Shown here: in pieces, positions 1-36,472 of the stretch
Layout: each line of letters begins with the position of its first letter
Position numbering within the stretch: the first letter of the stretch is position 1
Virus record (IMG/VR): IMGVR_UViG_3300025875_000618
Span: 1-50,201 of that record
Source of the DNA: a virus
Taxonomy: Duplodnaviria; Caudoviricetes
Strand: one strand, 5' to 3'
DNA: 50,201 nt
Translations under genes and position numbers: made by a program
The notes under the pieces: generated by a model
Database searches by the model: none
Told to the model about the DNA's origin: nothing
The model's input: only the letters and a program-made list of their open reading frames with translations

Positions 1-1532
1 CGGGACCTCTCCAGGTCCGCGGGCAGCACCGCCCCCACCCGGCGGGCCGGGGGTGCAACTCCAGTGGCAGCGCGCGGCCCACGCTCCAAGTCCGGGGCCG
101 GCCCAGCTGGCGAGAGCTCCAGGGCGGGCAGGGACTGCCGGACCCGCTCCAGGTCCTGCCGCACCGCGGTGGCAATCTCCTGGGCCCGCTGCGCGTCCCC
201 CACCGCCACGTGCGCGTCGTGCAGCGCCCGCGCCATGTTCGCCAGCTGCCGCAGCAGCACCGCCTCCGCCACCGGCCCGCGCCCGCCGTGCGCCGCGGAC
301 GCCAGCAGCAGCGCCGCGCCCCGCGCCGTGGGCCCCACCCGCCGCTGCCCCCGGGTCTGCCACGCCGGCACCTGCGCGGACCGCGCCAGGGCGTCCGCGG
401 TGGCCGCCAGCGGCCCCGGGGTGTCCTCCACCCGCCGGGACCAGGCCGCGAACGCCCCAGACGTCTCCCGGGCCACCCGCGCCCACTCCGCCACGTCCTC
501 CACCGGCACCCGCCGCAGGTACTCCCGCACCTCCTGCAGCTCCGCGGACACCTGCTCCCAGGCGTCCGGCTCCGGCACCACGGTCTCCCGCCCGGGCGCG
601 GCCGGCCGCCGCTGCCGCCGCGCCGCCTGCCACTCCGCCACCGCCGCCTGCGCGCTCTCCGGGGTGTCCGGCCAGTCCTCCCGCAGCCGCGGCAGCGTCA
701 GGTCCTTGGCCAGGTGCCCACCGCCGTACCACACCGGCCGGTCCTCCCGGGACGCCGGCCGCGCGGCCACGGAGTACCCGGCCACCACCTGGTCCGTCCC
801 GGCGGCGTACCGCGGCCGCACCAGCAGCCGCTCCGCCCGCAGCCGGCGCACGAACTCCGCCTCGTCCCCGGACGCCGCGGCCGCGGCGCGCACCGTCCGC
901 GCCAGCGTCTCCCGCACCGTCTCCGGGGCGCCGGTGCGCCGCTGCTCCTCCAGCTCCGCTGGCTTCACCCCGCGCTCACCGCGGCCCCGGGACCGGGACT
1001 CCAGCACCTGCAGCCCGTACCGCTGCTCCAGCTCCCCGCACACCTTCTGCGCCCGCGGCTGGTCCCGCCACACGTCCGCCTTGGTGCCGTCCTCCCGCAC
1101 CAGGTTCACCACCAGGTGCACGTGGTCGTTGCCCGCGCTGGACAGCCCGTGCCGGACCGCCACCCACCGGCACGCCGCGCGGCCGCCCTCCGGCTCCTCA
1201 CCGCCGCCGGAGAAGCCCATGCGGTCCACGAACTCCTGCGCGATCTCCGCCCACCGCCCGTCCGTCTGCTGGCCCTCCTCCGCCCGCAGGGACAGGGAGC
1301 AGTGCCACACGTGCCCGCCCGGCACGTCCACCATGAACGCCCGCCGCGGGTGGTCCAGCTCCCGCGCGATGCTCAGCGCGGCGTCGTGGGACAGCTCCGT
1401 GTCGTCGTGCCACGCCATGATCGCGGGGTCACCGGCCACCAGGTGCGGGTCCGTGTGCTCGTTGCGTCTGCCTGGCCCCACCAGGTACGCCATGAGCCCG
1501 GACATGCGCGTGCCCCGGCTGATGTTGGGCAT
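1..1532 (-). CDS. Relaxase/mobilisation nuclease (MOB_P-like), 3' end beyond the window edge
   Basis: Manual translation from ATG at 1532: MPNISRGTRMSGLMAYLVGPGRRNEHTDPHLVAGD...VWHCSLSL...NDHVHLVVNLV. It has the catalytic Tyr motif and HUH motif of actinobacterial relaxases. Absent from the ORF track because it runs off the edge. Confidence 0.9.
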   Translation of the reverse strand, partial: MPNISRGTRMSGLMAYLVGPGRRNEHTDPHLVAGDPAIMAWHDDTELSHDAALSIARELDHPRRAFMVDVPGGHVWHCSLSLRAEEGQQTDGRWAEIAQEFVDRMGFSGGGEEPEGGRAACRWVAVRHGLSSAGNDHVHLVVNLVREDGTKADVWRDQPRAQKVCGELEQRYGLQVLESRSRGRGERGVKPAELEEQRRTGAPETVRETLARTVRAAAAASGDEAEFVRRLRAERLLVRPRYAAGTDQVVAGYSVAARPASREDRPVWYGGGHLAKDLTLPRLREDWPDTPESAQAAVAEWQAARRQRRPAAPGRETVVPEPDAWEQVSAELQEVREYLRRVPVEDVAEWARVARETSGAFAAWSRRVEDTPGPLAATADALARSAQVPAWQTRGQRRVGPTARGAALLLASAAHGGRGPVAEAVLLRQLANMARALHDAHVAVGDAQRAQEIATAVRQDLERVRQSLPALELSPAGPAPDLERGPRAATGVAPPARRVGAVLPADLERS

Positions 1533-2106: not shown

Positions 2107-2324
2107 CAGGGCCCCCACCGGCGGAGCACCGCGCGGCGCAGCGTGGGCGCGTACTCCGGCAGGTCCACCTGCTCCAGCGCCACCACCTCCCACAGCCCCG
2201 CCGGCTCCACCGCGGCCAGGACCACCCCCGGCACCACCTCAGGGACCGCGGCCACGTCCGTCCAGGTGACAACCCGCCCGTCTGCCTGGCCTACCTGCCC
2301 CGTCCACCGCACCAGCAGGGTCAC
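2106..2324 (-). CDS. Hypothetical protein
   Basis: GTGA overlap at start, TGATG overlap at end. Confidence 0.6.
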   Translation of the reverse strand: MTLLVRWTGQVGQADGRVVTWTDVAAVPEVVPGVVLAAVEPAGLWEVVALEQVDLPEYAPTLRRAVLRRWGP

Positions 2325-2617
2325 GTCCGCTCCTCCAGCCCGGGGTGGGACCAGGCAGCCAGCGGCTGCTCCGCGGCCAGCCGCAGCGCCGCCGGCAGGT
2401 CCCACGCCCGCACCTGGATGGAGAACGGCTCACCCCACCAGTCCGCGTCCTGGTAGTCGTGCGGTGCCGCGTCCTCCGGGCCCATGATCCCGGAGGACAT
2501 GCGGGACGCCCCGGTGATGACCCAGGTGTGCCCGTCCTCCGGGGTCTGGCACAGGTGCTCACCCTCCGCCGGGTGCCACGCCTTGCACCGCCCGCAGTAC
2601 CGCTGGCTGGCGGTCAC
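2321..2617 (-). CDS. Hypothetical protein (CxxC...H...HxC)
   Basis: GTGA-coupled; VTASQRYCGRCKAWH... Confidence 0.65.
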   Translation of the reverse strand: MTASQRYCGRCKAWHPAEGEHLCQTPEDGHTWVITGASRMSSGIMGPEDAAPHDYQDADWWGEPFSIQVRAWDLPAALRLAAEQPLAAWSHPGLEERT

Positions 2618-3186
2618 CGGGCCGCCGCCCGCAGCTGCCCGGCGAACCACGACGCCGGCCCTGTCGCGTACACCTCCGCCGCCAGGTGGTACACCTGCTC
2701 CTCTCCCGGCCGGGACACCCGCACGACGTCCTCCTGCCACGGTCCGACCCACTCCACGGAAACGCCAGGCGCTACCAGCAGGCGGTCGTGCGGGTCCACC
2801 AGCTGCACCATCGGCTGGCTGGGCTGCTCAGAGCCCAGCCCCAGCGCCGCCCGCAGGTCCTCCAGCGCCACCTGCGGCACCGCGTCCTCCGGGTGCTCCG
2901 TGACCAGCGCCCGGACCCGCGCCAGCGTCCACTCCGCGTCCGCCAGCTCCTGCACGACGTCCCGCCGCTCCGCTGGCTGCGCCTGCTCCGCCACCACGTG
3001 GATGGGCAGGGTCACCTGCCAGTCCGACTGCGTGCCGTCGTCCGCCCGCACCGTGATGGTGGGCGCGGCCGCGTAGCCGACCACCACACCCTCCGCCACC
3101 GGCGGGTAGTTCCCCCGCGGGTCACACGCCGCGTACACCTGCACCCGGCGGCCCAGCCACCTCTCCGCCTCCGCGCTCACCGTCAC
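2614..3186 (-). CDS. Hypothetical protein
   Basis: 190 aa ORF, GTGA-coupled on both sides. Confidence 0.7.
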   Translation of the reverse strand: MTVSAEAERWLGRRVQVYAACDPRGNYPPVAEGVVVGYAAAPTITVRADDGTQSDWQVTLPIHVVAEQAQPAERRDVVQELADAEWTLARVRALVTEHPEDAVPQVALEDLRAALGLGSEQPSQPMVQLVDPHDRLLVAPGVSVEWVGPWQEDVVRVSRPGEEQVYHLAAEVYATGPASWFAGQLRAAAR

Positions 3187-3395
3187 GCCCGCCCCTCCGC
3201 TCGGTTCCTCAGGTCCTGCCGGTACATGTCCAGCGGACCGCCCACGTCCTCCCCGTGCAGCCAGCCCATCACCTCCGCGATGGGCGCGTGCCCGGGCGGC
3301 ATGTCACACACCCCGTGGTGGCCGAACGGCTCCCCGCACAGCCCCAGAGACCGCGCGTGCGCCACCACCAGCGCCCGCCGCTCCTCCGCGCTCAC
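3183..3395 (-). CDS. Hypothetical protein
   Basis: GTGA-coupled; C...C...GH...H pattern. Confidence 0.6.
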   Translation of the reverse strand: MSAEERRALVVAHARSLGLCGEPFGHHGVCDMPPGHAPIAEVMGWLHGEDVGGPLDMYRQDLRNRAEGRA

Positions 3396-3946
3396 GCCGG
3401 CCCCCGCAGCAGCTGCAGCACCCGCTGCGCCACGAAGTACCGGGCGGCCGTGGCGTCGGCCACCGCCGCCTCCTCGCTGCCCTCCTCCGGGTGCTCCGCG
3501 GGCAGCTCCGCCATGCTGCGGGCCCGCAGCTCCCGGCAGTACTTTCGCACCCGGTCCACCGCCGCCTGCGCGTCCTCCGCCGGGTCCTCCGGCCCGTCCA
3601 GCTTCTGCTGCAGCAGGCACAGCTCCAGCTCACCCGCGCCGCCCGTCCCCGGCCAGCACCGCGGCATCTGCGCCCCACCGTTCGTGCCCCGCGTGTCCCA
3701 GCTGCAGCCGATCACCTGGCACTTCCGCAGCGGCGCGGACTGCCACACCTCCTCCTCCGTGCGCTCCCCGTCCCGCCGGCGCATGAGCCGCACCGCACCC
3801 CCGGCCGGGTAGCCCTCCGCGAACCGCGCCGCCTGGTGCCTGGCGTTGGACGCCCCGGGCCGCTGCCACGTGGTGGCCGCCTGCCACACCTCCTGCCCTG
3901 GCCGCCGCACCTGCACCTGGTACTCCGCGTCCTCCACCGTGCTCAC
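3392..3946 (-). CDS. Hypothetical protein
   Basis: 184 aa ORF, GTGA-coupled. Confidence 0.7.
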   Translation of the reverse strand: MSTVEDAEYQVQVRRPGQEVWQAATTWQRPGASNARHQAARFAEGYPAGGAVRLMRRRDGERTEEEVWQSAPLRKCQVIGCSWDTRGTNGGAQMPRCWPGTGGAGELELCLLQQKLDGPEDPAEDAQAAVDRVRKYCRELRARSMAELPAEHPEEGSEEAAVADATAARYFVAQRVLQLLRGPA

Positions 3947-4371
3947 GACCCCACGCTCCCCACGCCCTCAGCTGCCAGCGCGTCCAGCGCCTGGTCGATC
4001 CGCCCACCCGGGCCAGCCACGTCCCTCAGGTGCACCAGCAGCTCCCGCACCTCCACCACCGGCAGGTCCCGCGTGGTGTTCGCCTGCCGCGCCAGCTGGT
4101 TGAGGTTCGTGGCCACCCCCGCGCACTGCCGGCGCAGCGCGAACAGGTCACGCATCGCCTGCCGCCGCTCCGCCGGCACCTCCCGGTCCGCGGCCAGCGC
4201 GGACTCCACCAGCAGCCGCTGCACCGACACCCCCAGCCGCCCGGCGCGCAGCAGCAGCTCCGCCTCCTCCTCCGGGGACGTCCGCACTTTCCGCACCCCC
4301 GGCCGCCCGCCCGGTACACCCTCCCGCCGGGACCGGCCCAGCAGCTGCCCCGGCGTCCGCTCCCCGCTCAC
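3943..4371 (-). CDS. mobC: MobC family relaxosome accessory protein
   Basis: RHH-like N-terminus (KVRTSPEEEAELLLRAGRLGVSVQRLLVESAL) and the diagnostic NLNQLARQAN motif. Confidence 0.9.
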   Translation of the reverse strand: MSGERTPGQLLGRSRREGVPGGRPGVRKVRTSPEEEAELLLRAGRLGVSVQRLLVESALAADREVPAERRQAMRDLFALRRQCAGVATNLNQLARQANTTRDLPVVEVRELLVHLRDVAGPGGRIDQALDALAAEGVGSVGS

Positions 4372-4535
4372 GTGGCCACCGCCGCAGCCGCCCGGCACTC
4401 CGCGCAGTCCAGCTCCTCCGGGCGTGCACCGCGCTGCCACCGCACGTAGTCCACGGAGCACAGCCCACCCGTCCAGTCCGGCCCGAACAGGCCCACCAGG
4501 TCCTCCGCCCGCACCGGCCGCGGCGTCTCCGTCAC
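4368..4535 (-). CDS. Small hypothetical protein
   Basis: GTGA-coupled; DLVGLFGPDWTGGLCSVDYVRWQR. Confidence 0.6.
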   Translation of the reverse strand: MTETPRPVRAEDLVGLFGPDWTGGLCSVDYVRWQRGARPEELDCAECRAAAAVAT

Positions 4536-4840
4536 GCTGCCCACCCCTCCACGATCAGCCGCACCATGCGCGCGCCCTCGTCCAGCTCCGTGGTCTCCTT
4601 CGGCGGGCGCACCAGTGCCAGCCCGGACTCCGCCACCGTGGCCGCGAACTCCCCGCGCACCTGCGTCCACCACATGCCCTCCATCACCGGCAGCCGCCTG
4701 GTCCACTCCGCCCCGATGACAGCGCGCACCGCGGTCACCCGCTGCCGGGACAGCCCGCCGCAGTCGCAGTCCACGTGGTCCCAGCCGGAGTCCGCCGGGC
4801 AGTCCGCTAGGTGCTCACGCCGGGGCCCGGGAGCGGTCAC
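4532..4840 (-). CDS. Hypothetical protein
   Basis: GTGA-coupled; H..DC...CDC motif. Confidence 0.6.
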   Translation of the reverse strand: MTAPGPRREHLADCPADSGWDHVDCDCGGLSRQRVTAVRAVIGAEWTRRLPVMEGMWWTQVRGEFAATVAESGLALVRPPKETTELDEGARMVRLIVEGWAA

Positions 4841-5643
4841 GGCTCCGCGGTCCAGTAGCCCAGGTGCGCGGCCGTGGACCACGTGTTCACCGCGTCCAGG
4901 TCCGGGTGCTCCGGCAGCGGCGTCCGGCCGTGCCGCAGCAGCCACTGCAGCTGCGCCGCCCGCTCGTCAATCAGCAGCAGCACCTCCCGCAGCGGCACCT
5001 CCCCACGCTTCACCGCCAGCACCAGCTCCCGGTCCTCCTCCGGCAGCGGCAGCGTCAGCCGGCCGGCCTGCACCACCTCCAGACCCTGGATGCACAGCCG
5101 CAGCGCGTGGGAGGCGTACTTGGTGTCGAAGCCGTGCGCGGCCACCAGCTCCGGCCGGTTGGGCGTGTGCCGCGTGTCCTGCCCCGTCACCCGCTGCCGC
5201 TGCGCCGTCATGTACCCCAGGAACCGCCGCCCGGCCTGCTGGGACAGCAGGGTGGGCCCGAACAGCCGCAGCTGCTCACCCAGCGGCGTGGACACCAGCA
5301 CGTGCTCCCGCGGCGCGAACAGCGGGAGCAGCGCCGTGGGATTCCCCGTGGCCACCAGCGCCAGGTACTTGCGCAGGGCGTACAGCGTCAGGTCCGTGTC
5401 CCCATGCCGGGACCGGTGACCCTCCGGCACCGTCCGCGCCACGTAGTGCTGCGCGTCCTGCGCGATGCCCAGCACCTGCTGCGGGGACTCCACGTACACG
5501 CCCATCTCGTCGTGGTCGTCCTGGCCCTCCAGCGCGATCCCGTGGACCCCGGAGCCCACCACCGTCCGCAGCACCTCCCGCTGCGGCGCGCTCCTGTCCC
5601 CGTTCTCCGTCAGCCACAGCCGCGTGGCGTCCAGCTCCGTCAC
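4837..5643 (-). CDS. Pol-beta superfamily nucleotidyltransferase (RlaP/YcgL-like)
   Basis: VVGSGVHG...DDHDEMGV (GS + DxD), GNPT, FDTKYASHALRL motifs. Confidence 0.85.
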   Translation of the reverse strand: MTELDATRLWLTENGDRSAPQREVLRTVVGSGVHGIALEGQDDHDEMGVYVESPQQVLGIAQDAQHYVARTVPEGHRSRHGDTDLTLYALRKYLALVATGNPTALLPLFAPREHVLVSTPLGEQLRLFGPTLLSQQAGRRFLGYMTAQRQRVTGQDTRHTPNRPELVAAHGFDTKYASHALRLCIQGLEVVQAGRLTLPLPEEDRELVLAVKRGEVPLREVLLLIDERAAQLQWLLRHGRTPLPEHPDLDAVNTWSTAAHLGYWTAEP

Positions 5644-6104
5644 CTCAGCACCTCCACGTAGGCGTCCGGGAACGCGCCCGTCTGACCCGACGCCGGCAGG
5701 TACACGGTCAGCCCGATCACCTCCGCCGACGTCACCCGCATCACCGGCGGGGCCTCCGCCAGCGCCGCGTCCATGTCCCGCTCCCAGGCCGCCAGGTCCA
5801 GCCGCGCCAGGTCCAGCCCACACGGGTACCGGCCCGGCGCGATGTTGTCGCACGTCCCAGACAGGATCACCTCCAGCGGGTCCAGCCCAGACGGGTACAC
5901 GCTCACCCGGCCCACCAGCGTGGCCCCCGCGTGACCCCCCGGCCACGGCCGCGTGTACAGCGCCATGAGCGGCACCGTCGCCACCCCGCTGAGCGCACCC
6001 GCCGCGATGCTCCGCCGGTCCGCCGTCTCCCGTTCCATCCACCCCGCGCGTCCCCGCACGGAGAACGGCTGCCGCAGCAGCACACCCGCCCTGTCCTGTG
6101 GCAC
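5640..6104 (-). CDS. Stand-alone prohead-protease-like domain protein (paralogue of domain in 31494-34166)
   Basis: GGAGGAG RBS before GTG 6104; TADRRSIAAGAL...PLM...GGHAGATLVGRV aligns by eye with TGDGRIFKVGSL...PLL...GHDGSIVVGRI. Confidence 0.6.
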   Translation of the reverse strand: MPQDRAGVLLRQPFSVRGRAGWMERETADRRSIAAGALSGVATVPLMALYTRPWPGGHAGATLVGRVSVYPSGLDPLEVILSGTCDNIAPGRYPCGLDLARLDLAAWERDMDAALAEAPPVMRVTSAEVIGLTVYLPASGQTGAFPDAYVEVLR

Positions 6105-6214
6105 TGGCTCCTCCGCCTGTCGTCTCTCAGCCCAGCGCAGCGATCCCCGCCAGGGGAACCCCCGATGTACGCCAGGGTCGCACAGCGTCACCGCAGCGTC
6201 CAGCGGCAGCCCGC

Positions 6215-6250
6215 CGTTAGGGCCCCTTGCCCTCTAGCTTGCTCACCCCC
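6215..6250. other. Candidate oriT / nic site
   Basis: CTAGCTTGCTC at 6234-6244 resembles MOB_P nic cores (ATCCTG/C, GCTTG/C). It lies in the intergenic gap at the head of the operon containing mobC and the relaxase. Confidence 0.4.
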
Positions 6251-6331
6251 ACTCACCCACAGGGTTTCCCCCACCTGTGGACAGACCTGGGTGGGGTGGC
6301 AGTGAGGGGAGGGGGCGCTACTCTCCGTCGC

Positions 6332-6637
6332 ATGGCTGAGACCCCGACCCCCGCGCAGTACGTGGACAGAGCCCAGGCGCTCCTGCAGGACCGGCTGGAC
6401 GTGGTGCAGGACCTGGTGCAGACCAGGCTGGCCGTGGAGGCGGCGCAGGCCGCGCTGGCGGAGGCGCAGCGGGCGGACGCGGTGGCGTACGCCGCGGCCA
6501 CCCGGAAGGGGTGGACGGAGCAGGAGCTGGGCCTGGTGGGCATCGCTCCGCCGGCGGTGCGCGTCCCGGGCCGGCCGCGCAGCCGGGGCAGCCGGGCGCG
6601 GGGCGGCCAGCAGGGACAGGAGCAGCAGCAGGAGTAG
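6332..6637 (+). CDS. Small coiled-coil hypothetical protein, plasmid-type
   Basis: MAETPTPAQYVDRAQALLQDRL...YAAATRKGWTEQEL; divergent from the mob operon and followed by a hairpin. Confidence 0.75.
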   Translation: MAETPTPAQYVDRAQALLQDRLDVVQDLVQTRLAVEAAQAALAEAQRADAVAYAAATRKGWTEQELGLVGIAPPAVRVPGRPRSRGSRARGGQQGQEQQQE

Positions 6638-6651
6638 CCCGGCCGGGACAG

Positions 6652-15465: not shown

Positions 15466-15502
15466 GTACACTCACCGTGTACACACCCCAGCTGAGGAGC
15501 TG
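15466..15502. promoter_or_regulatory. Divergent promoter with palindromic box and RBS hairpin
   Basis: GTACACTCACCGTGTAC 15466-15482; CAGCTGAGGAGCTG 15489-15502. Confidence 0.7.
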
Positions 15503-15504
15503 CC

Positions 15505-15726
15505 ATGAGCACCGCCCGCACCGCCACCACCGGCCGCCGCCGCCCCGGCTCCGTCCGCTTCGACCCGTACTGGAAGGTCCAGGTGTGGGAGGACCGCTCC
15601 CTGACCTGGAAGGACGTGCAGAAGGCCCACCCGTCCCCGGAGCAGGCGTGGGCGGCCGCGCCCGCCGGGCAGACCGTGCGGCTGATGCACGTCTACCCGG
15701 GCGGGCGCGCCCCCGTCACTCGCTGA
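15505..15726 (+). CDS. Small hypothetical protein
   Basis: GAGGAG RBS; FDPYWKVQVWEDRSLTWKDVQK. Confidence 0.75.
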   Translation: MSTARTATTGRRRPGSVRFDPYWKVQVWEDRSLTWKDVQKAHPSPEQAWAAAPAGQTVRLMHVYPGGRAPVTR

Positions 15727-18223
15727 ACCCGTACTCCGGGCGCGGGCTGCGGTTGCCCACCACCCACAGCAGGTCACCCTCCTGCAGGAACGGCAGGCAC
15801 TTGGCCTCGTACCAGGGGTCCAGCTCCAGCCCGCCCAGGTCCGTCTCCGGTGCGGCCTGGTGGTAGTCCAGCCCGGACTCCACCAGGGTCACCAGCTGCT
15901 CCCAGCCCTCTGGGGCCCACTGCTGCAGCCGCTCCGTGGGGTCCGCGCCCACCCGCACGCCCAGCACCGGGACGACGAAGCCGGCGCGGCTCATGCCGTG
16001 CAGCACCCCGGACAGGCTCATGGCGGAGCCCACCGGCATGACGATGCGGCGGACCTCCAGCAGGTGCTCCCGCAGCGCGGCCACCTGGGCGGCGGTGGCG
16101 TCCACCGCCTGCTGGCACTCCATCCCGAACGGCACCAGGGTCATGCCCTGCGCCGCGGCGTCCTCCCGGGCCCGGGCCACGATCACCGTGTTGTACCCCG
16201 GCCGGTGTTCGATCACCTCAGCGCCGAACGCGCGGACCCGGGCCAGCGTCTCCGTGTCCTCCGCAGCGGCGGGCACGTGCAGCCGGGCGGGGATGCCCAG
16301 GCGCTGCGCGATGCTGGCCACGATCAGCGCCTGCGGTGACGTCCTGGAGGAGGCGGTCACCAGCCCGGTGGCGCCCTCCGCCAGCGTGCGGCAGGACCGC
16401 ACCTTGCCGCCGGCCTGCCCGGCGTACACGTACGCATCGTCCCGCTTCACCAGGTGCCCGCCCCACCGCTCCACCGGGGTCAGCTCCGGGGTGTGGTCCG
16501 GCAGCTCCAGCTCCTCCTGCGCCTCCACCTCCGGCACGGTGACGTCCACCAGGCCGCAGTCCCGCGCCGCCTGCATCCCGTCCCCCTTGACGAACACCAG
16601 GACGTGCTGGTGCGTCCGCCCCACCTTCCGCCCGGCCATGAACTGGCGGCCGGCGCGCACCGCCAGAGACCCCACCGGCGTCACGTAGATCATCTCGTTG
16701 TAGAAGCCGGCGCCGGCCGCTTCGAAGGCGTCGATGGTGTCCCGGATCAGGCCCAGGTACCGGCCGTCTCCGCGCTTGGAGCGCACGTCCCCGATGACCC
16801 AGACCGCGAAGCGGTTGGGGGCCAGCCGGTCCACCGCCTTGCGGATGACGTCTGCGTGGGCGGTGCGGAACTCCTCCGCGGAGAGGGTGGACAGGTCCTG
16901 CGGGTCGTCGGAGTACCGCTCCAGGTAGGCGTAGGGCGGGCAGGACAGCAGCAGGTCCGCCGGCCGCCCCGGCTCTGCCAGGACCTCCCGGGAGTCCCCC
17001 TGCGTCCAGGTCAGGTCAGCGCCGGCGGGCGCGATGCCCCGCTGGGCGTCGTTGGCGTCCACCTGCTCCTGGCGCAGCTCCACTCCCTCGTAGGAGCGGC
17101 CCAGCAGGGCGGTGACCAGGCCGCGCACGGAGCCGCCGGCGAAGGGGTCCAGGACGTGGCCGGCGGCGGGGGAGAACCAGCGCACGGCCAGCTCCACCAG
17201 CACCGGGTCGAAGATGGAGGTGCCGGAGGTGGAGAGGTTCTCGGTGGACCCGGAGGAGTCCAGGTGGTCCCGGGTGAACTCGTCGTGCGAGAGCTCCCGG
17301 CCCAGGCGGGCCTCCGCCGCCTCCTTCTGCGTGTAGTAGGTGGGGACCCGCCCGGACGCGGAGGCCACGGTGAGCGCCCGGCCCTTGGCGTACCCGGGGT
17401 CAGCTGGGGCGGTGGTGCCGTCCGTGCTGCGCCCGATCCACGCGCCGCCACCGCCGCCGCCCGGGTGCGGCCCGCCGGCCTTGGTGCTGCGGGTGGGGGT
17501 GACACCCCAGCCGCCCTGAATGTCCGCGATGCCCGCCTGGTTGGAGTGCGCCAGGCCCTCACCGCGGCCCAGCTCAGACTGGATGCCGTGGGCCAGCCAC
17601 TGCGTCTTGCGGTTGCGCCACGGGCCGGAGCGGGCGTCCAGGACGGAGAACGGGGGGACCACGAAGCGGTCAGCCAGCGTGGGCCGGGGTGCCTCCGGCT
17701 CTGCGGGCTCCGCCACCGGGGACTCCGCGTCCGGGCGCTCCCCGCGCTCCGCCGGGTCCCGCTCCTCCTGCTCCTGCTGCAGGTCCTCCAGGGAGCTGTC
17801 CCCGGCCATGCTGTCCAGCAGCGCGTCCAGGTCCTCCTCCGCGTAGCCGGTGCCCTCCAGGTCCGGCAGGTCCTGCAGCAGCAGCGCCAGCACCGGCTCG
17901 TCGTAGGTGCCCAGGTCCGCCGTGCGGTTGTCCACCAGCAGGATGCGCAGCGCCTCCTGGTCGTCCACGTCCAGGAACACCGCGTCCACGTACTCCCAGC
18001 CCAGGTAGCGGGCTGCCATGAAGGTGTGGTTGCCGGCCAGGACGTGGCCGGTGGACTGCTGCACCACGATGGGCCGGTACTGGCCGTGCCGGCGGAGGCT
18101 GTCCGCGATGGCCTGGACGTCACCGCGGCGCGGGTTGCGGGGGTGGGGCTCCAGGTTGTCCACCCGGGCGGAGACGGTGTGCTGGCTGGGCTCAGCGGCG
18201 GTGGGGGCGGCGGTCTCTGACAC
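15716..18223 (-). CDS. Fusion: ParB/Srx N-terminal domain + amino-DNA methyltransferase + fold-type II PLP-dependent enzyme
   Basis: ParB: LEPHPRNPR...PIVV...LAGNH...DNRT. MTase: VLDPFAGGSVRG, SCPPY. PLP: LTPVE...VKRDD...GGKVR...PVGSAMS...LDPWYEAK. One uninterrupted 835-aa ORF. Confidence 0.9.
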   Translation of the reverse strand: MSETAAPTAAEPSQHTVSARVDNLEPHPRNPRRGDVQAIADSLRRHGQYRPIVVQQSTGHVLAGNHTFMAARYLGWEYVDAVFLDVDDQEALRILLVDNRTADLGTYDEPVLALLLQDLPDLEGTGYAEEDLDALLDSMAGDSSLEDLQQEQEERDPAERGERPDAESPVAEPAEPEAPRPTLADRFVVPPFSVLDARSGPWRNRKTQWLAHGIQSELGRGEGLAHSNQAGIADIQGGWGVTPTRSTKAGGPHPGGGGGGAWIGRSTDGTTAPADPGYAKGRALTVASASGRVPTYYTQKEAAEARLGRELSHDEFTRDHLDSSGSTENLSTSGTSIFDPVLVELAVRWFSPAAGHVLDPFAGGSVRGLVTALLGRSYEGVELRQEQVDANDAQRGIAPAGADLTWTQGDSREVLAEPGRPADLLLSCPPYAYLERYSDDPQDLSTLSAEEFRTAHADVIRKAVDRLAPNRFAVWVIGDVRSKRGDGRYLGLIRDTIDAFEAAGAGFYNEMIYVTPVGSLAVRAGRQFMAGRKVGRTHQHVLVFVKGDGMQAARDCGLVDVTVPEVEAQEELELPDHTPELTPVERWGGHLVKRDDAYVYAGQAGGKVRSCRTLAEGATGLVTASSRTSPQALIVASIAQRLGIPARLHVPAAAEDTETLARVRAFGAEVIEHRPGYNTVIVARAREDAAAQGMTLVPFGMECQQAVDATAAQVAALREHLLEVRRIVMPVGSAMSLSGVLHGMSRAGFVVPVLGVRVGADPTERLQQWAPEGWEQLVTLVESGLDYHQAAPETDLGGLELDPWYEAKCLPFLQEGDLLWVVGNRSPRPEYGFSE

Positions 18224-27899: not shown

Positions 27900-28394
27900 T
27901 CAGGACACCCGCCGGATCATGGCGGCGGTGGAGGGGAGCCCGGGCAGCGGGCCCTCACCCTCCCCGGTCACGGCGGGGTAGGGCAGGCCCTCTGAGAACG
28001 GCAGCGCAGCCACCCGCTCCTCCTGGTCCAGCGCCCGGACAGCTCCCACGAAGTCTCCGCGCTGGATGCGCAGGGAGCGCAGCGACGGGCCGGAGCGGGC
28101 CGCGCGGTCCCGGACCGCCTGCCACTCCTCGTCCGCCACCTGCGCCTCCCAGCACTCCCGCTCGTACCGCAGCTCCGCCACCTCCGCGGCCAGCCGGCGC
28201 GCGGTCTCCTCCGGGTCCGTGTAGACCCGCCACGCCTCAGCGGCGCGCACGCAGGCAGCCACCCGGGCGGGGGAGTCCGCGGGCAGGGCGTGCCACGCCG
28301 GGGAGCCGTACTCCGGGACGTCCGGGTTGCCGGCGTCCAGCAGGTGCTGCGCCCAGGTGGAGGGCTGGCCGCCCGGGTAGACGGGGTGGGACAC
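27900..28394 (-). CDS. DUF2742-like protein
   Basis: PEYGSPAWHALP...RVAA...AAEAW; GGAGGAG RBS; box at 28425-28441. Confidence 0.75.
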   Translation of the reverse strand: MSHPVYPGGQPSTWAQHLLDAGNPDVPEYGSPAWHALPADSPARVAACVRAAEAWRVYTDPEETARRLAAEVAELRYERECWEAQVADEEWQAVRDRAARSGPSLRSLRIQRGDFVGAVRALDQEERVAALPFSEGLPYPAVTGEGEGPLPGLPSTAAMIRRVS

Positions 28395-28463
28395 GGTGGG
28401 CTCCTCCGGTGGGGGCGGGGGGCTGTACACCTCTAGTGTACGGCACGGGGGCCGCGCTGTCAT

Positions 28464-28917
28464 CCTGTCTGTGCAGGTCAGAGGCCAGACCACCCTCAGG
28501 GCAGCTCCCCGTAACCAGCGCAGGGAGCGGCCAGCGGCGGCTGTCCAGGGCGCGGAGCGGCGCAGCGGACCCTGGACGGCCGGTGGTGGACGTCCCAGAG
28601 TTGGTGGAGGGGAGAGGCCCCACCGCAGGTAGGCTCCCGGCGCTGGGCAGCAGCGAGACGGCACCTGGACCGCGAGGCACCAGGCTGAGAGCTGCGGGGC
28701 CGCGGACGGTGGACGGGTCCAGGGGACCTGGACGCCGGGCCGGTGAGGGCGCAAGCCCGACACTCCCTGGGGTGCGACTCCCCACCTGCTGCCCAGCACC
28801 ACACGCACAGGGCCCGGGTGCCGCGTACGCAGCTCTCCCGGGCCCATGCACCACGCAGCCGCGTGGCGGCCGTCTGCCCACCGGCGTGAGTGGATGCCAG
28901 ACACCACCACGGACAGG
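28464..28917 (+). ncRNA. Candidate large structured non-coding RNA (unknown family)
   Basis: Intergenic. Terminal 10-bp helix, 12- and 13-bp internal helices, GCAA tetraloop, 10-bp and 7-bp pseudoknot pairings. Two G-U pairs and the tetraloop favour the + strand. Confidence 0.55.
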
Positions 28918-28925
28918 CGCTCAGG

Positions 28926-29141
28926 CTACCGCCGTCCCGCCGCCCAGCAGTCCGGGCAGACGTCCCGGGTGTTCCCATTCGGGCCGCGCGTGACGTGCCA
29001 GCCGTACTGCTCCCGGGCGTCTCGCCGCGCGGCTTTCACGGAGGACTGCCCCTGCAGAGAGCCGTCGCCGCTGGGCTCGCAGTCCTCCCCTGCGTCCTCC
29101 CCGGCATCGCAGTACAGCCACACCGGACGGTGTGCGGTCAC
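28926..29141 (-). CDS. Small phage Zn-finger protein
   Basis: CD...C...AR..A...GW...DVCPDC. Confidence 0.7.
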   Translation of the reverse strand: MTAHRPVWLYCDAGEDAGEDCEPSGDGSLQGQSSVKAARRDAREQYGWHVTRGPNGNTRDVCPDCWAAGRR

Positions 29142-29836
29142 TCCGTCCGCGCCACGGTGTACGTGCCGGTCTGGCCGCGCTTGGCCGGGCGGGTGTAGAC
29201 CAGGCGGCCGCCCGGGACGGACAGGCGGTGCAGCGCCGCGGAGACCGCACCGTGCCGCCGGCCGGTCTCGTCCTCCAGGCGCGCCGCGGACACCGGGCCC
29301 AGCTGGGAGACCAGGGCCACCAGCCGGTCCGTGAAGTGCGCGGGCTCCGGCTCCGGCTCCGGGGCGGGCTGCAGCCGGCGGGTGGAGGTGGAGGGGCGCT
29401 CCACGCCGTCCCGGCCGGTCACCTTGTCCGGCAGCTCCACGCCGGCGGCGCGGGCGGTGCGGCGGTCGGTGGACACGGTGGAGGCGGAGACGCCCAGGCG
29501 CTCCGCGATGGTGCGGGTGGGCATGGGCGGCTGGGCGGTGGACATGGACACCACCAGGGCCACGCGCTCCTGCACCGGCAGGGCCAGCTCCGCCAGGGAG
29601 CCGAACTCCTGCTCGCAGTAGTCGTGCCAGGTGGGGTAGCCCAGCGCCGCCCAGGCGCGCTGCTCCCGGGCGGTGGCCAGGCCCTCCAGCGCGCCGCGCA
29701 GGTTGCGCCGGATGCTCACGGTCAGCTCCTGCGCGTCCTCCCGGGACAGCAGGGACGCCGGCGCGCCGGCGGCGGGCAGCAGCTCACCCTCCAGAGCTTG
29801 GGTGGCGGTGTGGACCAGGTGCAGCTCAGCGGACAT
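29138..29836 (-). CDS. Actinophage-type HTH DNA-binding protein
   Basis: RAWAALGYPTWHDYC..EFG, then HTH TRTIAERLGVSASTVSTD, VTGRDG; possible second wHTH at the C-terminus; box at 29882-29898 upstream. Confidence 0.8.
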   Translation of the reverse strand: MSAELHLVHTATQALEGELLPAAGAPASLLSREDAQELTVSIRRNLRGALEGLATAREQRAWAALGYPTWHDYCEQEFGSLAELALPVQERVALVVSMSTAQPPMPTRTIAERLGVSASTVSTDRRTARAAGVELPDKVTGRDGVERPSTSTRRLQPAPEPEPEPAHFTDRLVALVSQLGPVSAARLEDETGRRHGAVSAALHRLSVPGGRLVYTRPAKRGQTGTYTVARTE

Positions 29837-29912
29837 GTGGGGCTCCTCAGCCGGGTGGTGCGGTGGGTGGGTGAGAGGACCGTACACCAGGAGTGTACGG
29901 CGGGGCCAGTGG

Positions 29913-31497: not shown

Positions 31498-34166
31498 CGG
31501 CGGACCTGCGCGGCCAGCTGCTGGACCCGGGACCGCGGGTCCCGCTTGATGGACGCGGCCACCCGCTGCAGCCGCTCCCGGCGGGCCTGCTGCTCCCGCT
31601 CCGCGCGCAGCTCCGTGCGGACCTCCGTGCGCAGCTCCGCCCGGACCTTCTCCGTGATGCGGCGGGTCAGCTCCTGCTGGGACAGCCCGGCCGGCCGGCG
31701 CCGGACCGGGGCCTCCGCGGGCCGCACGGACGGCGCGGCGGTGAGCGCGGTGCGCCCGGACTCGTCCGTGGCGAACCGGGGGGTGGGGAAGCCGGGGGCG
31801 TTGACGGACAGGACGCCGATCAGCTCCAGCTCACCGCCCACGCGCCGCCAGTCCCCGGAGACGGGGGAGCGCCGCAGGTCGTACAGCTGCTCCTCCGTCA
31901 CGCCCGGGGTGAGCGCGCCGGCCATCGCGATGCCGTACTCGTCCTCGTACAGGCGGACCACCGCGGTGCCCGCGCCCTGCACGTCGTAGTGCTCCACGGC
32001 GGAGCGGTAGGCCAGGCGCACGTCCGCGTGCCGGCCGCCCAGCGTCAGGTTGCCCACCGCCACCCGGGAGCCGTCCTCCGTGACCACCTCACCGGTGTGG
32101 AAGTAGGCGTACTTGCTGGGGGACTCCGGCGGGGTCACGCAGGTGTTGGAGAAGCCCACGTGGCAGGTGCCCCACACGGCCACGTGGCCGTAGACCCGGC
32201 CGTCGTCGGTGATCGTGCACGGCGTGGGCCCGGGGAGCTTGGGGTCCGCGAACCAGGCGGCCGGCGGGCGGAGCACCCCGGGGCCGGCCACCAGCGCCTC
32301 CGCGGCAGCGGCGGCAGCGGCGGCGACCACGGCGGTGGCCGCGTCCTCCTCCGTGCTGGCGGAGCTGGTGACGGTGCACGCGGACGGGGCCACCACCACC
32401 GGGTCACCGGCGGGCTGGCTGTCCGCGTCCAGCGGCTGCACCGTGACGGTCTCCGCGGTCTCGTCCACCGCGGTGACCTCACCGGACACGGTGCCGTCCG
32501 CACCCATGTCCACGTCCACGGTGTCCCCGACGACGATGGAGGTGCCGGCGGAGTCCTGCAGGGACAGGCTGGCCTCCCCGTCCGCGGGAGCGGCCACGGG
32601 GTCCAGGACGATGCGGGCCTTGGCGAACGCCGGCGTGGCCACCTGGGTGCAGGCGATCAGCTGGCCCTCCGCCACCTGCTCCAGCACCACGGGCTCCTCC
32701 CCGCGGTCCCAGGCGTCGAAGATGTCCTCCATCGTGACGGCGTTGCCGTCCTCGTCCACCATCTCTGCCACCACGCTGGCCAGGTCCACGGACACGGAGC
32801 CCAGGCCGGCCTCCACCAGCGCCAGCGCCTTGCCCACGGCGTCCTTGACCTCCGGGGCGTCCAGGTAGTCCCCGGAGGCCACGATGCCCTGGTCGGTGAA
32901 GTCCACCTCCAGGATGCGGCCCACCACGATGCTGCCGTCGTGGCCCATCGCGGAGGACTCCTGGTACAGGAGCGGCAGCGGCAGGTCCCGGGAGGTGAGG
33001 GACCCGACCTTGAAGATGCGGCCGTCCCCGGTGGCCTCCCCGAAGGGGGCCAGGAACGGGTCAGAGCGCCAGGTGCGCGGCATGGGCGTGCGTCCTTCGG
33101 GTGCGGCGGTGACGCCCGGCCCGGAGCCAGCAGCGGTGACAGTCTGCCCTGCAGCAGCAGGGGTGGCAGTGACGGACGCGGGGTCCGGCTCGTCGTAGGC
33201 GCGGACCACCGGGGGGTCCTGGTCCGCGCGGCGGTCGATCTCTCCCTGGACGTCCGCGGGGTCACGCAGCTGCCGGTGGGAGGTGTCCGGGGTCTCCTCG
33301 TCCGCCTCCAGGTCCAGCATGGTGCACCGGCAGTTGATGACCTCCCCGGCCGGGCCGGTGGGGTCCCCGGGGTGCATGAGCAGCGCGCTGCCCACGCGGA
33401 AGGGGCGGTCCATGCGGACCCGCTGGCCGTCCGCGCGGAAGTGGGAGTCCCGGGTGCGGGTGTCGATGGTGCAGAGCCACACCTTCTCCGTGGTGGCCCC
33501 GGTCAGCTCGTCCCGCGCCTGCCACGCGGCCAGGTGCCCGCCGTTGTACGCGCCGATGGTCTCCGTGCGGGCGATGGTCTGCGCCCGGTTCTCCCAGGTG
33601 GTCTCCCCCTGGGCGGCCAGCACCGTCTCCACCCGGTCCCTGATCTTGGGGATGGACTCCCCCAGGTCGATGCCGTCCTGGACCTCCGCGCGCACCACGG
33701 TGAAGGTGTCGTCCGGGACGCCGGACAGGCGATTGGCGACGGTGGCCAGGTACTCCTCCTGCCAGGGGCGAGCGGACAGCACCCGGTCCTCACCCAGGAG
33801 CGCGGCGAACACCTCACCCAGCAGGTCCTGCAGGGTCTGGACGATGGTGGAGCCCACGATGCGGTCCCACGCGGTGGACAGCGGGGGGATGACGCCGGGG
33901 TCCGGGGGCAGCCCGTCACCAGCGGCGGCGGTGACGGTGGACCGCAGCACGGCGGTGGCCACCAGCCCGGTCCACTGCTGCAGGGCGGAGCGGGCGGCGG
34001 CCAGCACCTGCGCCTCGTAGGCGTCCAGGCGGGCGGCGGCCTCCCGCCGGCGCTCCAGGTGCGGGTCTCCGGGCTCCGGCCAGTCCCCGCTCTCCGCGGG
34101 CGGGTCCTCCGTGGCGTAGGTGAGCAGGTGCGCGCCCACGGGGCCGCGGGTCCGGCCGCGGGTCAC
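31494..34166 (-). CDS. MuF-like minor head protein fused to capsid maturation protease
   Basis: MuF: RAQTIARTE, KVWL..D.RTR.SH, HPGDP...EVINCRC. Protease part: TGDGR...GHDG..VVG...VSVD...PAF, GHVAVWGTCH, SGDWR...VNAPGFP. Confidence 0.88.
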   Translation of the reverse strand: MTRGRTRGPVGAHLLTYATEDPPAESGDWPEPGDPHLERRREAAARLDAYEAQVLAAARSALQQWTGLVATAVLRSTVTAAAGDGLPPDPGVIPPLSTAWDRIVGSTIVQTLQDLLGEVFAALLGEDRVLSARPWQEEYLATVANRLSGVPDDTFTVVRAEVQDGIDLGESIPKIRDRVETVLAAQGETTWENRAQTIARTETIGAYNGGHLAAWQARDELTGATTEKVWLCTIDTRTRDSHFRADGQRVRMDRPFRVGSALLMHPGDPTGPAGEVINCRCTMLDLEADEETPDTSHRQLRDPADVQGEIDRRADQDPPVVRAYDEPDPASVTATPAAAGQTVTAAGSGPGVTAAPEGRTPMPRTWRSDPFLAPFGEATGDGRIFKVGSLTSRDLPLPLLYQESSAMGHDGSIVVGRILEVDFTDQGIVASGDYLDAPEVKDAVGKALALVEAGLGSVSVDLASVVAEMVDEDGNAVTMEDIFDAWDRGEEPVVLEQVAEGQLIACTQVATPAFAKARIVLDPVAAPADGEASLSLQDSAGTSIVVGDTVDVDMGADGTVSGEVTAVDETAETVTVQPLDADSQPAGDPVVVAPSACTVTSSASTEEDAATAVVAAAAAAAAEALVAGPGVLRPPAAWFADPKLPGPTPCTITDDGRVYGHVAVWGTCHVGFSNTCVTPPESPSKYAYFHTGEVVTEDGSRVAVGNLTLGGRHADVRLAYRSAVEHYDVQGAGTAVVRLYEDEYGIAMAGALTPGVTEEQLYDLRRSPVSGDWRRVGGELELIGVLSVNAPGFPTPRFATDESGRTALTAAPSVRPAEAPVRRRPAGLSQQELTRRITEKVRAELRTEVRTELRAEREQQARRERLQRVAASIKRDPRSRVQQLAAQVRR

Positions 34167-34531
34167 GCCGCGCTCCGGCGGGCGCGGGTCACCACGGCGG
34201 TGAGGTACCGGACGTCGTGGGCGGTGCCGGAGGTGAGGAGCCCGCCCACGTAGGACTCCAGCTCCCGGCGGAAGCGCACCGGGTCCAGCTGGACCATGCC
34301 GGCCAGGGACGGGTCGTCCATCCAGTCGAAGGCGCCGGCCAGCAGCCGGGGCAGCTGGCTGGCGTCCACCGGCACGTGCTGGTGGAGCTGCCGCAGGTCC
34401 CCGGTGTAGGTGCCGCGCACCGCCCGGGTCAGCAGCCGCTTGCCGGCCAGCTCCAGCGCGCGCTGGGTGAGCAGGTGCGCGCAGACGATCTCCTCTGAGA
34501 CCGCCTGCGGCTGCGGGGCGGGGGTGGTCAC
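34163..34531 (-). CDS. Portal-associated protein (resembles C-terminal extension of related portals)
   Basis: RALELAGKRL motif; GTGA-coupled to portal and MuF genes. Confidence 0.65.
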   Translation of the reverse strand: MTTPAPQPQAVSEEIVCAHLLTQRALELAGKRLLTRAVRGTYTGDLRQLHQHVPVDASQLPRLLAGAFDWMDDPSLAGMVQLDPVRFRRELESYVGGLLTSGTAHDVRYLTAVVTRARRSAA

Positions 34532-36054
34532 GCTGCCTCCTGCGCGGGTGCGCCGGAGCTGGCGCCCGGCTGGGTGGCGGGCGTCCCGCGGGTCTCGTCC
34601 GCGGACGCCCCGGGCTCTCCGGTGTCCGCGGCGGCGGGGGCTGCCCCGCCTATGGCGGCCGCGGAGGGCAGCGGCATGGTCTCCACCGTGCCGCCGGCCC
34701 ACAGGTGCATGAGGGAGGGCAGCAGCGCGGGGGCGGTGGCGGGGGCCAGCCGGACGGCGGCCTCCAGCAGGTGCGTGACCCGCTCCGCGTGGCTGGGGGC
34801 GTCGGAGTCCCCGAAGCCCATTGCGGTGCGCAGCGCGGCCGCGGACAGCTCCCCGGCGTTGTACAGGGTGGTGGCGTCCGCGGACCGGTCCGGGCGCTGG
34901 GTCAGCTCAGAGACGTCGTACCAGAGGGTGAAGGCGTAGGAGGCCAGGCCCAGGGCCTCCAGCGCCGGCTCGTAGTACGCCTCGTTGATCGCGGAGACCA
35001 CCGTGGTGAGCTTGGGGGCCACGTGCAGCTTGACCCCGGACTCCGCGATCTGCCAGGAGCCCCAGTGGTTGACGTCCCCCTTGCCCAGCAGCTCCTCCGG
35101 GGGCATGTCCAGGCCCAGGGCCAGGCGCCGGATGCACGCCTCCCGCGCGTCCTGGTTCTCCTTCTGCAGCTGGGAGGCGAAGGACAGGTGCTGGACCTTC
35201 TCCACCAGCTCACCGGGGACCCGCAGGACCATCGGGACCAGCCGGCTGGAGTCGCCCGGGTCCTCCAGCGGGGTGAGGGTGTTCTCCGCCAGGGACAGCA
35301 TGAGCGGGTCCGCGCCCGGGTTGGCGTCCAGCGCCTCCTGGGAGGGGGCGGGGAACTGCACCTCCATCGGCAGGATGAGCAGGCCGGCGCCGGCCAGCCG
35401 GGAGTCCATCTGCTGCCCGGCGACCTTGACCAGGGTCTGCAGCTCCCGGAGGACGGGGAGGACCGCGCGGACGGGGGAGTCCGCCTGCCACTTCTTCTTG
35501 GGGTGGGACTGCCAGACGCGGATGATGACGGTGCGCTCCGGGTCCAGCGGCCGCTTGCCGTTGCCCCGGTCGATCCACCAGCCGGACTGGTAGAACAGCT
35601 CGTCCGTGGACGCCACGTACCAGTCGTCGTCCGGGAGCGGGTCTCCTGCGGCGTCCAGCGGGGTCTCCCCGATGACGTAGCAGTCACCGGCGATGGTGAG
35701 GTGCACGCCGATCTGGGAGAGGATCTGGGACTGGCTGGACGGGCCGCCCAGGAGGTTGTGCGCGGCGGACAGCGCCGCGGCGTTCTCCGTGGGCGTGGCG
35801 GAGGGGGTGCCGTCCTCCTGGACGTCCGCGGCGTAGATGGAGGCGCGGGACAGGCTGTTGCCCATCCACTGCGCGGCCTGCCGCAGCTCCCCGCAGGAGT
35901 CGTAGAAGCCCCACGCCTCCTGCTGCCAGTCCTGCTGCAGGTTGGTGCGCGGCCGCTTGGTCAGGTCCAGCCGGGCGGCGGACGCGACCAGCGCGTTGGG
36001 GGCCAGGGAGCCCGGCTCCGGGTTGACGGCACGGCGGCCGCGGCGTCCAGCCAT
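34528..36054 (-). CDS. Phage portal protein
   Basis: WQQEAWGFYD..GEL, DSP, SRLAGAGLL, IRRLALGLDMPPEELLG...NHW motifs; position before MuF-protease; GAGG RBS. Confidence 0.85.
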   Translation of the reverse strand: MAGRRGRRAVNPEPGSLAPNALVASAARLDLTKRPRTNLQQDWQQEAWGFYDSCGELRQAAQWMGNSLSRASIYAADVQEDGTPSATPTENAAALSAAHNLLGGPSSQSQILSQIGVHLTIAGDCYVIGETPLDAAGDPLPDDDWYVASTDELFYQSGWWIDRGNGKRPLDPERTVIIRVWQSHPKKKWQADSPVRAVLPVLRELQTLVKVAGQQMDSRLAGAGLLILPMEVQFPAPSQEALDANPGADPLMLSLAENTLTPLEDPGDSSRLVPMVLRVPGELVEKVQHLSFASQLQKENQDAREACIRRLALGLDMPPEELLGKGDVNHWGSWQIAESGVKLHVAPKLTTVVSAINEAYYEPALEALGLASYAFTLWYDVSELTQRPDRSADATTLYNAGELSAAALRTAMGFGDSDAPSHAERVTHLLEAAVRLAPATAPALLPSLMHLWAGGTVETMPLPSAAAIGGAAPAAADTGEPGASADETRGTPATQPGASSGAPAQEAA

Positions 36055-36056
36055 GC

Positions 36057-36380
36057 TCAGTCCTCGTCCTCCAGGCCGGCCAGCAGTGCGGTGCCGTGGC
36101 TGTAGGCCAGGGCCAGGAGAGCGCCCAGGACCAGGGTGGGCAGCCACCAGGCCAGGCGGTAGGCGGGGACCAGCCAGACCACGGCGGCGGCCACCGGGAC
36201 GGACAGGTACATGGACACGCACCACCGGCAGTTGACCAGGTAGGCCACGGCGGAGGAGGGCCCCCAGCGGCGGGCCACGGCGCGCCGGAACGGCAGCATC
36301 ACGCGGTCCGCGGAGACCAGGCGGGTGAGGCGGGCAGTGGCCAGGAGACCGGCCAGGGTGGCGACGACGGCGGTGAGCAC
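36057..36380 (-). CDS. DUF1360-like membrane protein
   Basis: ARLTRLV..D...PFR...LVNCRWCVS; TM segments. Confidence 0.75.
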   Translation of the reverse strand: MLTAVVATLAGLLATARLTRLVSADRVMLPFRRAVARRWGPSSAVAYLVNCRWCVSMYLSVPVAAAVVWLVPAYRLAWWLPTLVLGALLALAYSHGTALLAGLEDED

Positions 36381-36472
36381 GGCGCGGACCGTAACCAGGC
36401 GTGTCCGCTTGACTACCGCCCGACGCGCCGTTACCCAACTACCGCCCCACGCACCACCTGGGAGCGCCTGCT

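Follow-up and report, generated by a model that had tools for sequence, protein, structure and literature searches.

A conserved hairpin as a candidate single-stranded DNA promoter or origin in a relaxase-encoding tailed phage

Introduction

The window analysed here (50,201 nucleotides, the whole stretch of the IMG/VR virus record IMGVR_UViG_3300025875_000618) contains a gene-free block at 28464-28917 that folds extensively on itself. A preliminary description made from the letters alone proposed a new large phage RNA of about 450 nt, with a closed terminal helix and a double pseudoknot, and named as main alternative a single-stranded DNA (ssDNA) origin used after conjugative transfer. Is this block an RNA or a DNA element, and which strand carries it? 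The evidence gathered here favours the alternative. A conserved core of about 120 nt is probably an ssDNA promoter or origin of the Frpo/sso type on the + strand rather than an ornate RNA.

The carrier phage and its neighbourhood

The window has a GC content of 75.6% and represents a virus contig with terminase, portal and Mu-F/protease genes. The best 25 relatives of its portal protein belong to Arthrobacter and Microbacterium phages (35-37% identity), and the nearest genomic relatives of its relaxase are found in Kineococcus, Pseudokineococcus, Modestobacter, Aquipuribacter and Quadrisphaera. One relative, G001 (94.6 kb), shares long blocks of about 80% identity with the window and additionally encodes a major capsid protein, a VirD4-like coupling protein, a weakly VirB4-like ATPase, a ParA-like protein, an M23 peptidase, RecT and RusA. 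Both versions were found in sequencing run X1 and thus represent two lineages, maybe from one sample. A third phage (P0001) encodes a DUF2742-like protein that is 89% identical. Viewed over window positions 1-6640 and G001:C1:40800-60200, the carrier is a tailed phage (terminase, portal, capsid, tail) with relaxase, MobC, oriT, coupling protein, VirB4-like ATPase and ParA-like gene, in two lineages about 80% alike.

Two further observations concern the carrier. A ParB-methyltransferase-PLP enzyme fusion is encoded at window 15716-18223, and the matching place in G001 (C1:27900-33200) holds QueF-like and TAGT glycosyltransferase genes and two ParB genes; these are possible DNA-modification cassettes. 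Two ORFs (34528-36438 and 34163-34702) match the portal profile phrog_776, which means that the C-terminal part of the portal is encoded separately. G001 contains two ORFs arranged similarly to this pair (34163-36438).

The genes around the element lie on the - strand, and related non-conjugative phages are likewise one-stranded. Three features flank the element:

27900..28397, - strand: gene into which the hairpin would transcribe; its homologues carry DUF2742 (PF10888) in precomputed Pfam annotation
28435..28463, - strand: leftward site resembling an ordinary promoter (ATGACA, 17 nt, TACACT); it overlaps a palindrome that recurs in front of many genes
28926..29141, - strand: upstream ORF of 71 aa ending at the TAG of TAGCCT; an unrelated ORF of 74 aa ends at the same TAG in G001

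The window protein 27900..28397 itself had no Pfam match, and a search for loci related by the downstream protein found none. The promoter scan returned one leftward site at 28435..28463, against 0.0 +/- 0.2 in shuffles, and its spacing is the same in G001. The palindrome, GTACAC-N5-GTGYAC, precedes many small genes between 8563 and 29898 (e.g. at 15466, 24796, 27796, 28425 and 29882), with 38 matches at two mismatches or fewer where 10 are expected. It overlaps the leftward -10 and is a candidate operator whose partner may be the HTH protein encoded at 29138-29839.

Folding of the gene-free block

The helices listed in the preliminary description were all recovered, i.e. a terminal helix of 10 bp (one G-T), a helix of 13 bp (one G-T), a perfect helix of 12 bp and five local hairpins, as were the 10-nt and 7-nt loop complementarities proposed as pseudoknots. 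A shuffle control confirmed that the block folds well. As RNA, the + strand of 28464-28917 reached -267.1 kcal/mol (z -4.57), a value matched by none of 100 shuffles, and the - strand gave z -1.94, with 5 of 100 shuffles as good. As DNA, the same stretch gave z -3.08 on the + strand (0/100 shuffles) and z -0.62 on the - strand (23/100). The wobble pairs of the element are G-T on the + strand and A-C on the - strand. For comparison, 23 tiles of equal length from across the window were scored on both strands (10 shuffles each); none fell below z -3.87, and the element reached -7.3 in that run.

The excess stability is due to a core of 123 nt (RNA z -6.8), for which the + strand is preferred as DNA (z -4.8 versus -1.9 on the - strand). 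This DNA-level preference supports a hairpin on the + strand. The remaining 292 nt on the 3' side only reached z -1.4 to -2.1, strands alike, compared with -3.6 to -4.1 for the 3' part of G001. Long perfect helices are nothing unusual in a sequence of 74% GC: the element has three of at least 9 bp, a number reached in 39 of 200 shuffles, and one of at least 12 bp occurred in 8 of 200. Of the pseudoknot matches, that of 7 nt is no better than chance (P 0.18); that of 10 nt has P 0.002, for a loop picked post hoc.

The strand, left unsettled by the preliminary description, settles on +. In TAGCCT, the -10-like hexamer of the - strand just beyond the 3' end, the TAG is in each phage the codon that terminates the upstream ORF; a - strand RNA starting there was rejected for this reason and for the poorer fold of that strand.

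Conservation in the related phage

The two phages agree on the core and disagree on most of the rest. Positions 28473-28637 are identical to the syntenic G001 site at 150 of 166 positions, against 56-76% at four-fold sites of four orthologous genes, and the hairpin at 28499-28620 differs in G001 by one compensatory and two one-sided changes. The 3' part comprises three features:

28638..28803, + strand: folded domain that varies between the phages, enclosed by the perfect 12-bp helix; without homology in G001, where different hairpins occur
28804..28845, + strand: hairpin with an outer stem shared with G001 (one compensatory pair) and a loop that differs; 31/44 identical
28872..28929, + strand: two short conserved 3' blocks, 28872-28890 and 28911-28929, each 17/19 identical

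The second of these blocks includes both the 3' arm of the proposed terminal helix and the stop codon of the upstream ORF. The 5' arm of that helix is not kept in G001 (13/31 identical over 28443-28472), and the expected number of end-to-end pairs drops from 15.8 in the window to 5.2 in G001 as RNA, and from 14.5 to 1.8 as DNA, which argues against a closed helix framing a 450-nt RNA. The domain closed by the 12-bp helix is unalignable (66/166 identical). For the double pseudoknot, the G001 loop finds merely a 7-nt partner expected by chance (P 0.39). The global fold and the pseudoknots of the proposed ornate RNA are thus not conserved in its single homologue.

Homologues of the whole element are scarce. 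BLAST against phages and plasmids found none, and a pattern scan of viral contigs returned G001 as sole homologue, the other hits (L001, L003-L011, L128, L130) not being homologues of the whole core. The same scan led back to the same contig among metagenome contigs and gave no hit among genome contigs. Two phage copies of the core were found in all, both in one sequencing run. A protein-coding reading of the core was not favoured: the core carries two single-base indels, and its relatives keep structure.

An RNA can still be formulated on the + strand. It would be a non-coding RNA of 160-450 nt, antisense to the flanking genes, made of a conserved rod and a variable 3' domain, and maybe a promoter mimic that binds RNA polymerase. 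The z-scores of the whole element and of its core as RNA fit such a transcript, as do the occurrence of G-U rather than A-C wobbles on this strand, one GNRA loop, and a TAGTGT at 28434-28439 that could serve as a + strand -10. This is nevertheless an unlikely explanation. Besides the lack of conservation of the terminal helix, the 12-bp domain and the pseudoknots, the promoter and terminator scan found neither signal for a + strand RNA. The absence of any RNase P, tmRNA or tRNA signature, already remarked in the preliminary description, was borne out: there was no Rfam hit at gathering score, nothing credible at E up to 10 (best E 1.4), and nothing with ARAGORN.

Anatomy of the core hairpin

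The conserved core folds into one long imperfect hairpin in which promoter-like boxes lie on the 3' arm and mini-hairpin sequences at the tip:

28473..28498, + strand: invariant 5' flank, which would be template just past the hairpin base; 54/55 identical over 28473-28527
28499..28620, + strand: conserved core, long imperfect hairpin, predicted ssDNA promoter/origin; same fold in the window and G001
28511..28513, + strand: template side of a 3x3 mismatch loop, opposite 28606-28608 in the fold
28552..28566, + strand: two GCGNAGC DNA mini-hairpin sequences in the tip loop
28573..28578, + strand: -35-like hexamer TGGACG on the 3' arm, pairing with 28541-28547 at probability 1.00 as DNA
28596..28601, + strand: -10-like hexamer CAGAGT, 17 nt after the -35

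The boxes are degenerate (4/6 versus TTGACA and 3/6 versus TATAAT), and the corresponding arm of G001 reads TGGAGG, 18 nt, CAGAGT. The -35 is paired, and within the -10 the fold places mismatches at particular bases. A-11 (28597) faces A28522 (C in G001), A-9 faces G28520 and T-7 (28601) faces G28518. Both A-11 and T-7 have a Watson-Crick pairing probability of 0.00 in both phages. These are the two bases flipped out by sigma-70 factors. The mismatch loop further down the stem is retained in the hairpin of G093 as ATA/GGA; within it, a leftward RNA would begin with an A copied from T28512, a start site placed from the fold. Since the complement of the 5' arm offers a -35 and no -10, reading the sequence suggests that leftward initiation would occur only once the strand is folded.

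The tip reads differently at the two levels. As RNA it contains G.G and A.A mismatches, and as DNA it makes two mini-hairpins. GCGNAGC sequences form very stable DNA mini-hairpins, the corresponding RNA hairpins being less stable; a tandem copy of a related mini-hairpin is described as binding SSB poorly, and such mini-hairpins are known at the G4, ssiA and N4 sites (PMC13037366). GCGNAGC occurs 79 times singly on the + strand of the window and once as a tandem pair, at the tip; in G001, too, the tip pair is the sole tandem on the corresponding strand. Counted over the whole element, the motif occurs five times on the + strand and never on the - strand (two and one in G001), which is not above background (7.5% of tiles).

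Relatives of the core hairpin

Model R1, built from the two phage copies alone, was used to search bacterial genome loci. It returned seven relatives with 27-36 bits, several of which match the hairpin from end to end, their outer stems exchanged and their TTGAC canonical; the relatives carry TTGACN at the -35 position. Six of the seven lie 0.1-0.35 kb upstream of a rolling-circle Rep of the REP_ORF2-G2P type, on the Rep-coding strand, the Rep being identified by Pfam for three relatives and by tblastn (80-89%) for three. Single-strand origins sit just upstream of the rolling-circle Rep on its coding strand. That relatives occupy single-strand-origin positions and keep TTGAC and the mini-hairpins also counts against the RNA reading discussed above. 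Five of the six Rep-linked relatives have a serine recombinase nearby, and the six probably form one element family. The seventh hit (L244, E 0.048) lies in coding sequence and was judged a chance match. In BLAST searches with the core, 40 of 158, 29 of 401 and 9 of 30 genomes showed weak matches, and R1 kept 3 of 32 of those loci.

Six loci (L235, L233, L236, L240, L241, L243) are small integrated elements with an HUH Rep (PF23343), mostly accompanied by a serine recombinase. Their variable cargo looks defence-related, with a NACHT-like ORF in L233.

The features of the core recur unevenly among folded hairpins. The -35 is paired in 17 of 18, and A-11 and T-7 are open in 12 and 11 of the 18, respectively. 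In the two closest bacterial relatives these bases are predicted to be paired (0.57/0.53 and 0.89/0.97).

The stem and mini-hairpin motif was also found at 69 viral loci, 63 of them distinct, with 27-73% GC. These loci (L131-L199) combine a GTCAAGGG stem, GCGNAGC tips and CCCTTGAC, often near microvirus, inovirus or rolling-circle Rep genes, and the motif is a candidate widespread complementary-strand origin. In a scan of the two longest ORFs per locus (111 ORFs), 14 loci had a rolling-circle Rep or ssDNA-phage capsid/scaffold gene at most 1.5 kb away, on the motif strand in 12 of the 14, and the two opposite-strand loci are near-identical to each other. No fixed -10 is evident in this viral set: NANNNT at a spacer of 16-18 occurs in 14 of the 63, versus 10 of 63 on the other strand.

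A TAGCGT-containing hairpin in L046 was dropped, as it lies inside an integrase-like ORF. Weak matches of the hairpin tip (E 0.01-0.04) were seen in unannotated stretches of Shewanella plasmids (H39, H41, H44, H45). The literature searched gave no relevant account of the stem motif or of an actinobacterial sso; its coverage of older work is poor, so that absence from print does not follow. Actinobacterial single-strand origins are described in older literature.

Relaxase, oriT and strand polarity

The phage carries genes for conjugative transfer at the left end of the window:

600..1532 (tested part), - strand: MOBP-type relaxase (PF03432, E 5e-13); the gene probably extends past the window end
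3943..4461, - strand: MobC relaxosome protein (PF05713 and PF21983)
6124..6244, - strand: oriT-like motif of the relaxase family (profile from 73/81 relaxase loci, E 4e-7), also present in G001

The relaxase is 82% identical to that of G001 and 56-64% identical to the best 30 plasmid relaxases. Unlike in plasmids, mobC is split from the relaxase and oriT by inserted small genes, and both phages have a gene for an RlaP-family nucleotidyltransferase between oriT and mobC (window 4837-6042 and 5640-6191).

On the + strand, the near-invariant core of the oriT-like motif is TAGCTTG|C, which puts the predicted nick at 6241|6242. PMC7755788 lists GCTTG|C as nick site of pRJ6 (MOBP7) and Tn1549, and this match makes + the predicted transferred strand. 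The accessible parts of PMC4993578, PMC5714925, PMC6098607 and PMC2920175 give no nick polarity. On the predicted polarity, the element lies 22 kb from oriT and the neighbouring genes point toward oriT; relaxase last is the usual polarity (PMC11541004).

The plasmids with the closest relaxases complicate this picture. Their hairpin has 24 full-length hits, 16 of them sequences used for training, and every one is found on the strand that codes for the relaxase, at 0.2-2.5 kb from oriT. These hairpins are opposite in polarity to the window element, so the transferred strand can carry at most one of the two sets. Two arrangements are conceivable: the plasmid hairpins act on the strand kept by the donor, or the nick is made in the opposite strand, in which case the window element would be the one on the retained strand. 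Model R2, trained on the plasmid hairpins, puts the core at the top of its window hits, though only at E 0.42, and the core is not among its 13 G001 hits; a sequence-only profile of the plasmid hairpin misses the core. In favour of the promoter/origin reading, the hairpin built by the motif across the 81 relaxase loci covaries (up to 9 of 16 sequences have spacer pairs in which both partners differ) and is followed by A at -11 in 15/15 and T at -7 in 73%.

Considered for themselves, these actinobacterial MOBP elements (L047-L127) combine a conserved oriT motif (73/81) with a covarying hairpin of promoter-like layout (24 full-length hits) located 0.2-2.5 kb upstream of oriT. It is on the predicted retained strand and may be a donor-side priming site. 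A small gene found ahead of the hairpin in several plasmids has a homologue at window 6332-6637 (35%), followed there by a terminator-like hairpin instead.

The opposite polarity of the plasmid hairpins is an argument for another source of ssDNA acting on the same DNA hairpin, i.e. the retained donor strand, RecE/RecT resection, lagging-strand exposure or cruciform extrusion. The hairpin would then prime donor or vegetative replication. The distance of 22 kb from oriT, the RecT and PD-(D/E)XK nuclease of G001, and the lack of a primase or polymerase among 30 G001 proteins scanned would all fit. We hold this to be improbable, about as much as the RNA reading, because the invariant oriT core fits the listed GCTTG|C sites on the + strand and the relaxase-last order is the usual one. 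Related phages without a relaxase also have no hairpin. The latter (G003 and G004, with neither relaxase nor oriT) are distant, with portals 48-49% identical, and their missing hairpin is weak evidence.

Proposed mechanism

The preferred reading, a + strand ssDNA promoter or origin used after transfer, can be laid out as follows. The relaxase would nick at 6241|6242 and the + strand would enter the new cell first. After 22 kb of transfer the core would fold, and the mini-hairpins would help keep SSB off it. Host sigma-A RNA polymerase could then bind the paired -35 and the pre-opened -10, and start leftward at T28512. The resulting transcript would serve as primer for the second strand, as message for the DUF2742 gene and the small genes pointing to oriT, or as both; both priming and gene expression are reported for Frpo/ssp1, and ssp2 is described as a structural roadblock (bioRxiv 10.64898/2026.01.09.698686). 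In duplex DNA the leftward reading retains a -35 and no -10; this start would therefore fall silent and leave transcription to the ordinary promoter at 28463-28435. The variable 3' part of about 290 nt may be an accessory folded block; being the side met first by incoming synthesis, it could act as a roadblock and possibly slow conversion like ssp2 of F, which is speculative. General background is found in PMC4595007 for sso and in PMC13478746 for ssDNA promoters.

Least likely of the explanations weighed is a captured single-strand origin kept as a protein-binding site or as a rightward duplex promoter (TGGACG-17-CAGAGT) whose RNA, some 300 nt long over 28608-28920, would be antisense to the upstream operon: the -35/-10 arm is promoter-like in duplex DNA also, the 3' part has conserved blocks and hairpins and no Rep gene follows the hairpin here, but this gives no account of the conserved 5' arm, the mismatch positions and the 54/55 flank, all upstream of the -35.

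A wider evolutionary scenario is only tentatively put forward and we rate it as rather doubtful. An undescribed hairpin family (GTCAAGGG stem, GCGNAGC tips, TTGAC arm) would be common to ssDNA phages, rolling-circle islands and actinobacterial MOBP plasmids, where it would prime donor-side synthesis on the retained strand. A conjugative tailed actinobacterial phage would have recruited such an sso as a leading-region promoter, with a folded block delaying second-strand synthesis.

Comparison with known systems

The large phage RNAs GOLLD and ROOL share with the block its length of about 450 nt, its intergenic position in a phage and a strong predicted fold. The block differs from these, and from RNase P, tmRNA, 6S and Ms1, in that it matches no Rfam 15 model and shows, with one homologue, no conserved multi-domain fold with covarying pseudoknots. 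A strongly folding gene-free phage block can thus mimic a large RNA and yet be a DNA-level element.

The mini-hairpins relate the core to the G4/St-1/alpha3 origins, RSF1010 ssiA and the N4 early promoters, which also have GCGNAGC at a site used as ssDNA (PMC13037366). Those sites recruit a primase or a phage RNA polymerase, whereas here the mini-hairpins cap a stem with sigma-A-like boxes.

The sso of rolling-circle plasmids and sso1 of ICEBs1 are likewise strand-specific folded DNA proposed to be read as a promoter (PMC4595007). The likeness extends to position, as the closest relatives of the core lie upstream of an HUH Rep on its coding strand (6/7). The window copy has no such Rep, and neither the Rep nor the serine recombinase of the relatives' family was found in the window or G001.

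The Frpo/ssp1, ssi and ssp2-3 sites of IncF/IncI1 plasmids are, like the core, long imperfect GC-rich hairpins holding a -35 and a -10, and they too are located upstream of genes templated by the predicted transferred strand and pointing to oriT (PMC11541004, PMC13478746, bioRxiv 10.64898/2026.01.09.698686; Masai and Arai 1997, as cited there). The core differs from them in its actinobacterial-type host, its tailed-phage carrier, its tandem GCGNAGC tip and its distance of 22 kb from the nick. Its downstream gene is DUF2742-like rather than ssb or psiB, and no AT-rich UP element is evident. Among 72,556 plasmids, no significant BLAST match linked it to Frpo/ssi (best E 0.01, no record covering 80%). 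The carrier itself is uncommon, a tailed phage with relaxase, oriT and coupling protein; conjugation domains are described as only sporadic among phage-plasmids (bioRxiv 10.1101/2025.11.07.687105).

ssDNA promoters have been tested mainly in enterobacterial plasmids, and sso in rolling-circle plasmids. The core adds a compact actinobacterial candidate whose motif can be searched for across ssDNA phages, islands and plasmids. As best read from its sequence, it would work like Frpo/ssi and sso, while standing outside the known Frpo set in sequence and outside the Rep context of sso.
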